The notes under the pieces: model-generated
The model's database searches: none
What the model saw: only the letters and a program-made list of their open reading frames with translations
What the model was told of the DNA's origin: nothing
In this document: positions 1,378 through 40,354 of the stretch, piece after piece
Layout of the letters: each line of letters opens with the position of its first letter
How positions within the stretch are numbered: the stretch's first letter is position 1
Program-made: the position numbers and the translations under genes
Source: a virus
Length of the DNA stretch: 64,000 bases
Strand: one strand, 5' to 3'
Virus record (IMG/VR): IMGVR_UViG_3300031420_000498

Positions 1378-2046
1378 ATGAGTGCAGTCAAGTTCCATCT
1401 TAGCCCGAAGACTCAGCGTCCCGAGCGTTGCCGAGCCCAGCTCCGGCTCTGTGGCTATGACCACTACTCAAGCGAGAGTGAGGCCCTGGAGGCCATGGAG
1501 ACAGCTGCACTCAAGGAGGCGGGCGATGCGCTGCCCGCAGCCCAGAGCAGGCACGCAGCTGGTACAGGAGCTACCAGTGAGCGGCCAACCGTTCCCCTGG
1601 GAGAGCTTCGAGTGGCGGATGAGGTGAAGCGCGAGGGATCCTACCACTACCAGGAGCTCTGGATCCGGGACGAGACCGGAGAGCCCATGGTCTACGCCAA
1701 GGTCAACCTCCTCAAGTGGGGCCGGAGGGAGGACGGTAGCTTTGGCTACATCCCCGGCGTGGTGCTCTGCGATGTGGAGGTCCGCCCCGAAGGTCGTGGT
1801 CGAGGCTACCCCCTGGAGCTCATCCGAAAGCTCAAGGAGACCTACTCCACAGACAGTGTGCAGTTCACGGGCACCTTCTCCGAGGGTGGCTACAGGATGT
1901 TCAAGGGCCTGGAGAGGCAGCAAGAAGAGACAGGGGAGAGCCTGGTTTCCCTGGAGATGGGCATGAAGGCCGTCGAGCCTCCGCCTGGAGAGTCCTACGA
2001 CTTCGTGGACGACTGGGAGAACGAGCGAGGCAAATACCCGCTCTGA
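1378..2046 (+). CDS. N-terminal HCCH module + GNAT acetyltransferase-like domain
   Basis: AAGGAG SD; N-term FHLSPKTQRPERCRAQLRLCGYDHYSSESEA; GNAT motif A-like DVEVRPEGRGRGY. Confidence 0.65.
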   Translation: MSAVKFHLSPKTQRPERCRAQLRLCGYDHYSSESEALEAMETAALKEAGDALPAAQSRHAAGTGATSERPTVPLGELRVADEVKREGSYHYQELWIRDETGEPMVYAKVNLLKWGRREDGSFGYIPGVVLCDVEVRPEGRGRGYPLELIRKLKETYSTDSVQFTGTFSEGGYRMFKGLERQQEETGESLVSLEMGMKAVEPPPGESYDFVDDWENERGKYPL

Positions 2047-2140
2047 TCGGCCCGGTCAGTTGCGGCGAGCTCCCTTTCGGTGTAGCGTCGGCACGAGAGC
2101 AAAGCTCTTCCATTCGATCTCACCACACAGAAGGGCCATC

Positions 2141-2452
2141 ATGGTCAACAAGAAGCTCCTCGCAGTCGGCACCCTGGGCCTCATCCTCTCCATCGGCCTC
2201 GTGGGCTGCAGCGAGACCACCGGAGACCGGGATGGAGGTGCTGGCAACCGGGCAGACAGCTACGCCGACGCCACCCATGTGAAGGTCTTCAAGAACGCTG
2301 ACAGCGTCCCCAATGTGGCCTTCTTCTGCCTCGGCGACACGGGCTGGGCATCCACGCTCTCCGGTTCGGACGCTGGTGAGAACAAGGCTGCCAGCCTGGT
2401 CCGCAATCCGGACTACGACTCGACCTGCACGGGAGTCTCCGAGCCGAAGTAG
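2141..2452 (+). CDS. putative lipoprotein
   Basis: MVNKKLLAVGTLGLILSIGLVG-C: basic N-term, hydrophobic core, lipobox LVGC. Confidence 0.75.
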   Translation: MVNKKLLAVGTLGLILSIGLVGCSETTGDRDGGAGNRADSYADATHVKVFKNADSVPNVAFFCLGDTGWASTLSGSDAGENKAASLVRNPDYDSTCTGVSEPK

Positions 2453-2621
2453 CCTTCCATAGGCCGACGGGAATTTTCCCGGATAGGGGTCTAACTCTAG
2501 CTCGAGTTTTTAGATACCATCTCCGCATACACCCGCTATCCTGACCGGGAAGGCGTACTCAAGGATGAGTTGCTCGAAGGTCGAATAGCCAACCGCGGGT
2601 GAGGGGAATGGATCAGGAATC

Positions 2622-2954
2622 ATGAGCAACGATGTTGTGGCCTACAGGGGTAAGCTCGCGCCGGTAGACCTTCACGGTCAGTCGATCGATAGCTGGATTC
2701 AGGAGAAGCTCGGTACGAGCTACCTCGATGGATCCTACAGCACATGGACAGAGGCGCTCGAGGATGAGTGCTACGGCCAGTACCTCTACAACGAGAGCAC
2801 TGGCAAGCTCTACGAGGTTCAGCGAGAGAAGCTGCAGCAGGAAGGATTCGTTCAGTCCACCGCCAATCCAGACGGAACCATCGACTTCTTCGTCGGCTTC
2901 TACAACGACCAGGTTCGCTTCAGGGACTTCGCGAAGGGCATCCTTGTTCACTGA
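2622..2954 (+). CDS. phage-type hypothetical protein, paralog of 6303-6641
   Basis: YRGKLAPVDL..N.DGTIDF.V.FYN shared with the minus-strand ORF 6303-6641. Confidence 0.75.
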   Translation: MSNDVVAYRGKLAPVDLHGQSIDSWIQEKLGTSYLDGSYSTWTEALEDECYGQYLYNESTGKLYEVQREKLQQEGFVQSTANPDGTIDFFVGFYNDQVRFRDFAKGILVH

Positions 2955-2975
2955 TCACCGGTAGTTGCTGCCACT

Positions 2976-3023
2976 CAGCGAGGCGGCGAGGGAGAGATTT
3001 TGTGCTCCCTCGCCGCCTCGCTG
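2976..3023. terminator. 18-bp perfect inverted repeat after 2622-2954
   Basis: CAGCGAGGCGGCGAGGGA / TCCCTCGCCGCCTCGCTG followed by TTT. Confidence 0.7.
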
Positions 3024-38010: not shown

Positions 38011-38075
38011 ATCGTATTCACCGCGATAGGTTTCACCTAGAACTTCCCCGCCATCCACCGATTCGAGGAGTCCCC

Positions 38076-38210
38076 ATGAGCAAAACCCTGGGCAAGCATG
38101 CCTTCATCGAAACCAAGGGCTGGCGCCACCGGGCTAGCCTGAAGATCAAGCAGCGGCGCATCAACCGTCGCCGGGAGGATAAGAGCTGGAAGCAGGCCTC
38201 GGAGGGCTGA
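38076..38210 (+). CDS. small very basic protein (44 aa; not in ORF track)
   Basis: GAGGAG SD; MSKTLGKHAFIETKGWRHRASLKIKQRRINRRREDKSWKQASEG. Confidence 0.55.
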   Translation: MSKTLGKHAFIETKGWRHRASLKIKQRRINRRREDKSWKQASEG

Positions 38211-38298
38211 GCTCTCAGTTCCTTTGCACCATTGGCTTTGGCCGTCTCGATAGAATGATGTCGAGACGGCCAAAGACCTTTGAGATGGAGCAAGACAG

Positions 38299-38850
38299 AT
38301 GCGAGTAGCCACAGACGGATCCTGCCTAAAGAATCCGGGCGGTAAGACCGGCTGGGCCTGGGTGGCCGAGGATGGTCGCTGGCAGTCTGGCAGCCTCCCC
38401 GAGGGCTCCAACAACATCGGAGAGCTCATGGCTGCCATCGCAGCACTCCATGCCCACCGGAGTGTGGAAACGCTCCATCTGGAGATCGACTCTCAGTATG
38501 TGCTCAACATCGCTCAGAAGTGGGGCGTAGCCTGGCGGCGCAAGGGCTGGAAGAAGGCCAACGGTGAGCCCGTCGCAAACATCAAGCTCGTCTCCCGGCT
38601 CCTTGACCTCGTGGACCGTCCGGGGCTGACTATGCAATGGGTCAAAGGTCACAGTGGCCACTGGCTCAACGAGCTCACCGACGAGCGTGCAGGTTCAGCA
38701 GCTCGCCAACAGACTCCAACAACCAAGGGACGCTTCACTCCAGATGAGATCGCAGATGCGGTGCTCGCTGACGGTGATGCCAAGGCTGCAGCGGCCAAGA
38801 AGCGCGCAGCAAAGAAGGACGCAGCGAAGCCCAAGCCAAAGGACTCCTAG
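38299..38850 (+). CDS. rnhA: ribonuclease HI
   Basis: ATDGSC..NPG, SNNIGEL, IDSQYV, WVKGHSG..NE..D catalytic D-E-D-D set. Confidence 0.9.
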   Translation: MRVATDGSCLKNPGGKTGWAWVAEDGRWQSGSLPEGSNNIGELMAAIAALHAHRSVETLHLEIDSQYVLNIAQKWGVAWRRKGWKKANGEPVANIKLVSRLLDLVDRPGLTMQWVKGHSGHWLNELTDERAGSAARQQTPTTKGRFTPDEIADAVLADGDAKAAAAKKRAAKKDAAKPKPKDS

Positions 38851-38899
38851 GATCTTCGGCTCGTTAGATAGCTCTCCGTAGCCAATCGAGGGAGCAGCC

Positions 38900-40354
38900 A
38901 TGGCCAAGGGACAAATCCATCTCACACCCGATGGACCAGCTCCCTGCTCTGCCGACCCCGCAAAGCCCGGAGCTCGCGGTTGCCCCTACGGAGCCGGAGG
39001 TCACTTTGCCACTGAGTCTGAGGCAGAACAGGCCTACCAGAAACTCATGGAAGCACAAGGGCTCGATTCGCTGGGTTCTAGCTCATCGTCCCTGAGTGAT
39101 CTACGCCGAAAGCTTCAGGCGCTGAACGGAGCTGGATCACCGAGGCTCGAAGAGCTTCAGGATCTCGGCAGTCGCATCGAACATGAGATCCTAGCCCGGG
39201 CGGGCATCGAGGTGGATCGGGACGACTTGAGCCCGGAGGAGCTAGCCGTGCTAGCCAAGAGTGCCTCGAGCGTGCTCCGAGAAATCCAGGGTGAGCCCGT
39301 GGTCCTCCGCAGCAAGTTCCACGGCCCCTTCGCCAAGCAGCTCAAGGAGGCTCTAGCTCCCGTGCCCAGTGGAGCCGCTTACCTGGTCTACGGGGATGTC
39401 CACACGGAGACGGTGAACGCTCGCAACGGATCCAGAGATGGGTTCCACATCCAGCAGGCTGCTATCATGGCTCCCGCATCGGTCGAATCCAAGAGCCCCC
39501 TGAAGGTCAGCGCACTGGCAGTCCGTGGGGACTTTGTGGTGGACTCCTCCATCGCTGTACGCCATGAGATCGAGAGCGGAGGGCTCCAGGGCTTCGCCGT
39601 GGATCGCATCGAACGAGGTGTGGGAGAGCGACTCCAGGAAGGCGACAGCGTGCTCCACGCTATCCGCCAGAACCGGGCAGATGATCGCTTCATCGAGCTT
39701 CTCCAGGAGAAGGTTCTTGACTCGGATGGAGTGATCCTCCCCGGTCAGACCGAGCGTTTCCGGGAGCTCGCTCCGGAGCTCCTGGAGTCGGCAGAGGGTT
39801 CAGCAGTTGTCTCCAGCTTCTATGCTGGTAGAAAGCCCACGGGTGCCATCGCTCGAGGAAAGCGCTACCGGAAGGTGGCCAAGGACTTCGAGCTCAAGGA
39901 CGACCGGGGTGAGAGCTACGGTGTCGGGCTCGATCTCTATGAGGTCCAGGAGAAGCGGCTGAGCTTCCGGGACCACACCATCGGCACTAAGCGCTACGGC
40001 GGCGACAACAACGCCCAGAACTCAGTGCTCCTCCATGAGTTCGGCCACGCCATCCAGTCAGCCCGATCCGGTGGCATTCCCGGTGAGAGGGAGCTCTTCC
40101 AGAAGATCTATCCCCAGGGTGAGCGCATCAAGGATGATGGCTACGAGCGCTTCAGTGGCTTCCCCGACGACTACATGGGAGATGTGGGCGGCCGGGAGGT
40201 CTTCACCCGGGCCACCGAGGGTCTCTTCTATCCGCAGTACTCGGGCAATGAGTACCTCTACGACGGCTCCGAACGCAGCCAGGAGGTTCGTCGCTGGGCT
40301 CTAGGGACCTGGGCATTCCTCAGCGCAGAGGGGCTCAAGACGAGCAAGGGCTAA
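38900..40354 (+). CDS. N-terminal HCCH module + C-terminal zincin-like metallopeptidase
   Basis: QIHLTPDGPAPCSADPAKPGARGCPYGAGGHFATESEA; LLHEFGHAIQ ... YMG..GREVF. Confidence 0.75.
   Translation: MAKGQIHLTPDGPAPCSADPAKPGARGCPYGAGGHFATESEAEQAYQKLMEAQGLDSLGSSSSSLSDLRRKLQALNGAGSPRLEELQDLGSRIEHEILARAGIEVDRDDLSPEELAVLAKSASSVLREIQGEPVVLRSKFHGPFAKQLKEALAPVPSGAAYLVYGDVHTETVNARNGSRDGFHIQQAAIMAPASVESKSPLKVSALAVRGDFVVDSSIAVRHEIESGGLQGFAVDRIERGVGERLQEGDSVLHAIRQNRADDRFIELLQEKVLDSDGVILPGQTERFRELAPELLESAEGSAVVSSFYAGRKPTGAIARGKRYRKVAKDFELKDDRGESYGVGLDLYEVQEKRLSFRDHTIGTKRYGGDNNAQNSVLLHEFGHAIQSARSGGIPGERELFQKIYPQGERIKDDGYERFSGFPDDYMGDVGGREVFTRATEGLFYPQYSGNEYLYDGSERSQEVRRWALGTWAFLSAEGLKTSKG

Follow-up and report, generated by a model that had tools for sequence, protein, structure and literature searches.

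The window analysed here, a stretch of 64,000 nucleotides from the IMG/VR virus record IMGVR_UViG_3300031420_000498 that belongs to a 193-kb contig, encodes three proteins that share a small His/Cys module at their amino termini and then continue into unrelated payloads. Gene a (1378–2046, 222 amino acids), gene b (6805–7674, 289 amino acids) and gene c (38900–40354, 484 amino acids), all open reading frames (ORFs) on the plus strand, match a hidden Markov model (HMM) of this module with E values of 1.8e-11, 7.5e-20 and 1.3e-20, respectively. Some 50 residues long, the module follows the pattern H-x8-10-C-x5-12-C-x5-11-H[FY]xxxxEAxxA[YF]E and occupies residues 1–48 of the gene a product (1378–1521, plus strand; putative ligands H7, C18, C25 and H29), residues 1–57 of that of gene b (6805–6975, plus strand; H4, C15, C28 and H36; the copy used for modelling) and residues 1–55 of that of gene c (38900–39064, plus strand; H7, C16, C28 and H35). 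A six-frame regular-expression search finds the full H..CxA..C..H[FY]..EA motif at three places in the window (1396–1485, 6814–6933 and 38918–39025), each match starting three to six codons past the ATG of gene a, b or c, and an HMM built from 150 family members finds no fourth copy. Alignment of the three N termini leaves the columns H, C, A, C, H, E and A invariant. Pattern search, alignment and HMM together bear out what a sequence-only reading of this DNA had proposed, namely that one module heads all three genes. The module-coding DNA is merely 51–56% identical between copies, so that conservation acts on the protein; a shared RNA or DNA element is ruled out by this divergence and by retention of the motif in genomes spanning 32–60% guanine plus cytosine (GC).

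No payload of the three can be assigned to a Pfam, PHROG or NCBIfam family, and they have no such family in common, as that first reading had anticipated in describing them as completely different. The payload of gene a (1579–2043, plus strand) is GNAT-like. Its ESM Atlas features agree with those of Acetyltransf_1 clusters at 0.96 (209 shared), all of its best named clusters are Acetyltransf_1, and the Atlas's own model resembles such clusters with a template-modelling (TM) score of 0.53–0.58 over residues ~70–197; an RGRG sequence lies at residues 140–143. Atlas features and structure make the earlier assignment to the GNAT acetyltransferases plausible, whereas sequence HMM searches of Pfam (E ≤ 1) and the PDB are silent. 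All 12 of the 12 gene a orthologues keep the module. In the payload of gene c, an HEFGH motif (40034–40048, plus strand; residues 379–383) marks a predicted zincin-type metallopeptidase site, and the H, E and H are invariant across eight orthologues, with several invariant Glu residues downstream, in agreement with the HExxH motif originally seen there. Pfam Zn_peptidase_2 is matched weakly (E 0.29), ATLF or Peptidase_M90 is present in a minority of the members of its Atlas neighbours, and a sequence search of the PDB returned nothing usable; a single-sequence AlphaFold model of the 484-residue protein has a predicted local distance difference test (pLDDT) score of 38. The helical payload of gene b matches no family, and its orthologues (P0003, P0007 and P0010, 79–95% identity) lie on contigs of 97–297 kb, where DnaB, ParA, actin-like and AAA genes surround them as in the window.

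These genes represent a large family. Searching 1.84 billion cluster representatives exhaustively with a 10-module profile (hmmsearch) yields 2,019 metagenome clusters, defined at 50% identity, under a threshold of E ≤ 1e-3; 41 of these pass E ≤ 1e-10. A word-index search with the three window modules places the same N terminus on proteins of 950 residues (ResIII/Helicase_C), 334 residues and 187 residues. We inspected 196 module proteins for position and spacing, and used a 150-sequence alignment for conservation and 189 proteins for payload clustering. Spacing across the 196 follows H-x8-10-C-x5-12-C-x5-11-H. Neither Cys varies in the alignment, nor does the last His; the first His and one Ala each reach at least 90% conservation, and the conserved positions other than the ligands are mostly Gly, Pro, Ala and aromatic residues. 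Two surface motifs, NPxTGxP and CPFGG, show strong conservation between phyla and between hosts of 32–60% GC. Conservation stops ~16 residues past the last His (HYxTxxEAxxAYExxM), and a low-information linker rich in Ser, Thr and Lys comes next. The module is neutral to acidic, with a median net charge of −1 and a median isoelectric point (pI) of 6.1 (41% with a pI below 6); the window copies carry 0, −5 and −2.

The position at the N terminus claimed from the window holds for most of the family: the first His falls within residue 8 in 183 of the 196 proteins and at residues 9–30 in 8, some of which are probably mis-called starts. The claim does not extend to every member, for the module is C-terminal in 5 of the 196, is repeated two or three times in tandem in three proteins, and is followed by fewer than 50 residues in six stand-alone-type proteins of 63–100 residues. 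Scanning 150 full-length members against Pfam, NCBIfam and PHROG returned no family that covers the module; profile searches of the PDB gave no match at E ≤ 10 in one case (A5) and weak unrelated matches, best E 0.29, in another (A3). The Pfam family DUF6233 (PF19746) matches one of ten modules below threshold, with 37 residues aligned at E 0.009 and 16.5 bits where the curated cut-off is 27.6, and the other nine, including two of the three window copies, not at all; DUF6233 also has no match in a Gordonia genome that carries the module, and no members in 61 Mycobacteriales genomes. Literature term searches found no published description. The module is therefore a large family not listed in curated libraries, although it may hide among the unnamed domains in the supplementary data of earlier comparative-genomics work.

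Behind this constant N terminus the payloads are diverse. All-against-all comparison of the parts past the module resolves the 189 proteins into 112 BLAST-distinct clusters, 87 of them singletons, and the C termini of the 150 members carry at least 20 different Pfam families. Among these are ADPrib_exo_Tox (five proteins), GmrSD_C (three), PolyA_pol/CCA-adding enzymes (two) and ResIII with Helicase_C (two), together with LRV repeats, 2H phosphoesterase, MvaI_BcnI, HNH, N6/N4 methylase, NT5C and GNAT domains; PHROG matches add endonuclease VII, polynucleotide kinase, the ParB C-terminal domain and an Alt-like ADP-ribosyltransferase, and three members weakly match PHROG 595, head maturation protease (E 3e-5). 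Similar modules sit on different payloads: at least six payload groups without relation to one another stand behind modules 48–64% identical to the gene c type (MAKGQIHL...). The same is seen within one genome. A 2.1-Mb Clostridiales metagenome-assembled genome (MAG; DUQJ01, G004) carries 16 module genes on contigs C31, C41, C46, C51, C81, C124, C149 and C200, with near-uniform N termini (MSKFHINKHGVPAPCKAK...) and unrelated C termini, the median identity being 58% among modules and 15% among payloads. The picture of a constant N terminus with swapped C termini, first drawn from three genes, thus extends to the family, and the module, far from always heading one type of payload, precedes more than 100 groups. 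Modules of the Clostridiales MAG also have a further conserved E-x-[HYF]-G-hydrophobic-hydrophobic motif past the helix described below.

We modelled the module of gene b with AlphaFold2 and a 150-row alignment (pLDDT 82.9). The predicted structure is a compact β-hairpin (strands 2–5 and 12–15) followed by a long loop that bears the second Cys and a helix (residues 40–55) that begins right after the last His. Foldseek returns insignificant Kunitz-like shapes alone (best E 4.4 for the PDB and 0.83 for AFDB clusters), and VIA-align against 48,161 chains gives a best Z of 3.7. Convincing structural neighbours are confined to uncharacterised members of the same family: nine proteins of the viral MAG 'Siphoviridae sp. 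ctHip2' (probability up to 1.0), one of which is annotated as a Zeta toxin, and three ESM-Atlas clusters labelled Uroviricota (TM 0.66–0.70 over 50 residues). From the conservation of the two Cys, the last His and the first His, most likely one zinc bound by His, Cys, Cys and His holds the module together. Ligand conservation and the confident fold make the zinc-binding module of the sequence-only reading plausible.

The distribution of the family is narrow. A degenerate DNA pattern for YHINPxTGxPxxC occurs on just nine contigs among 185,579 species genomes, which belong to Actinomycetota MAGs, Gordonia sinesedis, the Clostridiales MAG, Paucilactobacillus wasatchensis and, as two short contigs, a bin labelled Pararhizobium; two of the carriers are cultured strains, G. 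sinesedis JCM 12126 and P. wasatchensis WDC04. The module profile finds no member in 400 other Actinomycetota genomes or in 400 other genomes of the Clostridiales MAG's phylum (Bacillota). Isolate phages gave no match (tblastn with three subtypes, 50,697 records), nor did plasmids (tblastn with one subtype, 72,556 plasmids) or IMG/VR contigs (protein, alignment and two DNA patterns), and the window itself has no megablast match among plasmids and phages. Where a taxon is on record for a family member, it is mostly Uroviricota, and the elements span 32% to 60% GC. With none of 800 sampled genomes positive, few contigs bearing the pattern and isolate collections without a match, we conclude that nearly all carriers of the family are large, uncultured and apparently extrachromosomal mobile elements of Gram-positive bacteria, phage-like or plasmid-like. 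The family is not limited to the actinobacterial elements in which the first reading proposed to look for it, since the Clostridiales MAG and Paucilactobacillus have it as well. Copies are often clustered: three lie within the 64 kb of the window, four within 14 kb of a 26-kb contig (L010, ERR12057384) and at least nine in one viral MAG.

Comparison with related elements shows how module genes come and go. The window from 13300 to 29000 is syntenic with a 27.8-kb metagenome contig (L011; 55–98% protein identity) that holds a module gene (P0166, 315 amino acids) and one further ORF at the place where the window has 182 bp (20057–20239). Likewise, the window from 49700 to 63740 shows synteny to a section of the 673-kb contig L005 (30–67% identity), a stretch of small co-directional genes of unassigned function, where the module gene P0181 is replaced in the window by a gene for a 447-residue protein (58977–60320). 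Module genes thus fill slots that in the window are empty or otherwise filled, and behave as variable mobile cargo in related elements. The window's own genes include DnaB_C, ParA/CpaE-like, AAA, FtsK-like, HD and ATP-grasp proteins, and PHROG and Pfam searches detect no structural hallmark gene among the window ORFs scanned, 30 further ORFs included. The window DnaB is 33–40% identical to actinobacterial plasmid helicases and to phage helicases alike. Both its ParA/CpaE-like ATPase (8590–9639) and its DnaB-like helicase (4635–6161) have counterparts, 40% and 33% identical, in the Clostridiales MAG, on contigs of 32% GC that are rich in modules (L034, 6821–8257, and L037, 6417–7907), which hints at a backbone common to elements across phyla. 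Next to the CpaE-like gene, that MAG encodes ATPases of the T2SSE and AAA_10 (VirB4-like) types as well as a prepilin-type LRR protein.

What might such a module do? We consider it, with a probability of roughly 0.5, a protein–protein docking (adaptor) domain that has been shuffled onto counter-defence or host-takeover enzymes, a function suggested by family architecture, distribution and predicted fold. The module would be an independently folding domain of ~50 residues, built of a β-hairpin, a loop and an amphipathic helix and stabilised by zinc, which has been recombined onto more than 100 unrelated C-terminal domains, many of them enzymes of kinds common in host take-over and counter-defence. 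As a docking adaptor it would gather these diverse enzymes at a single shared partner, which could be part of the machinery for transfer or packaging that the element itself encodes, or else a conserved hub in the host. Conservation of NPxTGxP and CPFGG across phyla suggests a conserved interaction. The tandem, stand-alone and C-terminal copies, together with CCA-adding payloads, are easier to reconcile with a general binding domain than with a strictly N-terminal signal, and the neutral to acidic character of the module speaks against generic nucleic-acid binding.

Several observations weigh against a docking domain of this kind. The metal is deduced from residue conservation. Among the payloads that can be recognised, roughly half work on nucleic acids, a pattern that would also fit a finger targeting nucleic acids. 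Tandem (up to three modules), stand-alone (63–100 residues) and C-terminal copies occur, none of which a pure N-terminal signal needs. The window ORFs scanned hold no capsid or terminase match, and the IMG/VR, isolate phage and plasmid collections are without a match to the subtypes tried.

A narrower form of docking, possible but clearly the less probable proposal, is that the module is a loading tag: the element's capsid, portal, scaffold or transfer/secretion channel would recognise the folded module, and the enzymes would be delivered with the DNA. The extreme N-terminal position in 183 of the 196 proteins suits such a tag, as does the repertoire of Alt-like ADP-ribosyltransferase, zincin, methylase, superfamily 2 (SF2) helicase and GNAT, which the polyvalent-protein study (PMC5512222) predicts to be co-delivered. 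So do the mainly Uroviricota taxa on record, the three weak matches to the head maturation protease family (PHROG 595, E 3e-5), and the T2SSE and AAA_10 ATPases that stand beside the CpaE-like ATPase on module-rich contigs of the Clostridiales MAG. Yet neither the scanned window ORFs nor the 16-copy MAG yielded a capsid, portal or terminase (Pfam searches of the MAG for capsid and terminase being negative), and the module genes of the window sit among replication and partition genes (DnaB and ParA) rather than within a structural module. The C-terminal, tandem and stand-alone copies also tell against a tag, and housekeeping-type payloads such as the CCA-adding enzyme, NAPRTase and 5'-nucleotidase need no injection. 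We hold as similarly doubtful the broader proposal that a lineage of giant mobile elements spanning phyla (contigs to 673 kb, in Actinomycetota and Clostridia) uses the module as a folded, zinc-dependent signal that steers dozens of different enzymes into its transfer particle or channel.

A tag of this sort is found in phage T4, in which an N-terminal capsid targeting sequence is common to the internal proteins and Alt, which are packed in the head and injected. The T4 sequence is a short, unstructured peptide of ~10 residues that the prohead protease cuts off, whereas our module is folded, probably binds metal and is sometimes C-terminal or repeated. MuF polymorphic toxins (Jamet et al. 2017, PMC5576092) are similar in design, being phage-borne with a constant N terminus and many unrelated C-terminal effectors, and their N-terminal domain is proposed to direct them to the phage particle (PMC5576092). 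MuF, however, is a large domain of head morphogenesis for which Pfam has a model, whereas the module is a 50-residue His/Cys domain without a Pfam match and with many paralogues per element; MuF (Phage_Mu_F) is absent from the three window N termini (Pfam, E ≤ 1) and from the families matched by the 150 members. With the polyvalent proteins (Iyer et al. 2017, PMC5512222) the family shares an effector set of ADP-ribosyltransferase, zincin-like peptidase, GNAT, DNA methylase, SF2 helicase, nucleotidyltransferase and ParB. Those proteins, of phages and conjugative elements, are described there as stringing 2–15 domains together in one giant polypeptide, whereas module proteins usually carry one payload behind the same small module. 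A term search of the main text of PMC5512222, which reports 40 'novel uncharacterised domains', did not find the His/Cys module, nor is it mentioned in the searched passages of comparative-genomics work on jumbo phages and on polyvalent proteins. The LXG/type VII secretion system toxins and other secreted polymorphic toxins (PMC3482391; S8-PTS, PMC9424270) resemble the family in their Gram-positive hosts, constant N-terminal trafficking domain and variable C-terminal toxins, but reside in chromosomal toxin–immunity loci, whereas module genes lie on mobile elements; LXG, WXG and signal-peptide features are absent from module proteins, with no such Pfam match. A constant N terminus with swapped effectors is therefore a known principle, and the module itself matches none of these systems and no searched library.

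Somewhat less probable again than a loading tag is a zinc finger that would anchor the enzymes on DNA or RNA, such as the genome of the element or tRNA and rRNA of the host. A putative metal site of the His/Cys type would fit, tandem arrays of up to three modules recall multi-finger proteins, and nucleic-acid payloads are many (ResIII/Helicase_C, HNH, GmrSD_C, MvaI_BcnI, endonuclease VII, N6_N4 methylase, PolyA_pol/CCA, polynucleotide kinase and the ParB C-terminal domain). Against these stand the neutral to acidic charge (median −1, 41% with a pI below 6) and a conserved set made up mostly of Gly, Pro, Ala, aromatic residues and ligands, and not of basic ones. HMM and fold searches also reveal no similarity to a known zinc ribbon or finger, and protein-modifying payloads are common (ADPrib_exo_Tox in five proteins, GNAT and the HExxH peptidase). 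Least probable, and in our view improbable, is a structural or regulatory cap that has no partner (a stabiliser, a zinc or redox switch, protection of the N terminus from host proteolysis, or an oligomerisation handle): the module is small and probably metal-dependent, any payload class would be compatible and stand-alone copies are few, but a generic stabiliser would not be expected to be confined to one kind of mobile element and absent from 800 sampled cellular genomes, and the strong conservation of the surface motifs NPxTGxP and CPFGG between phyla suggests a conserved interaction.

Around the three window genes, a GGAG Shine–Dalgarno-like site lies 5–10 nucleotides 5' of each ATG on the plus strand (1364–1367 for gene a, 6797–6800 for gene b and 38891–38894 for gene c), and a TTAGAT or TTAGAG hexamer ~30–40 nucleotides 5' of each gene. 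The sequence-only reading had set these starts apart from leaderless neighbours; the GGAG sites are present in all three, but a Shine–Dalgarno-like motif also precedes about half of the neighbouring ORF starts checked, so the sites are not distinctive. The ORFs downstream of genes a, b and c lie at 2060–2452, 7898–8383 and 40486–40824, and the first of them, directly after gene a, encodes a small lipoprotein-like protein with a signal-like helix ending in LVGCSE. Two copies of an 84-nucleotide element flank gene b (6657–6740 and 7742–7825; 48 nucleotides at 83% identity plus a common 15-nucleotide start), with no copy near genes a or c. Paralogous proteins of ~110 residues (MS.D...YRGKL.PVDL...) are encoded near the modules of genes a and b, at 2622–2954 (plus strand) and ~6303–6640 (minus strand); the latter gene is divergent and just upstream of gene b, a layout found again in a second contig (L002).

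Further afield in the window, the protein at 58977–60320 that stands in for a module gene has a signal peptide and immunoglobulin-like repeats, with weak PHROG matches to Hoc-like and tail proteins. An R2K-clade ATP-grasp protein (PF14243, E 5e-15; 35098–36114) and an HD-domain protein (25954–27027) lie among unannotatable neighbours. On the 26-kb contig with four module genes, one of the four is fused to a class II CCA-adding nucleotidyltransferase, and the neighbours of the modules include VWA, PP2C, Ser/Thr kinase, M50 peptidase, NrdI and thioredoxin-reductase-like proteins.

That Pfam, NCBIfam, PHROGs and the PDB all lack a domain of ~2,000 clusters marks a real gap in annotation. The module could serve as a marker for very large and poorly known mobile elements of Gram-positive bacteria, and could flag their most variable, host-interacting genes. 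Because two cultured strains carry copies (G. sinesedis JCM 12126 and P. wasatchensis WDC04), the question of what it does is within experimental reach. Should it prove to serve in docking or loading, identifying its partner would reveal how an entire set of enzymes is organised or delivered by these elements, and the module would offer a small portable tag for other proteins. If it were a loading signal in particular, it would amount to a natural, portable protein-delivery tag whose dedicated receptor is encoded on the same elements.

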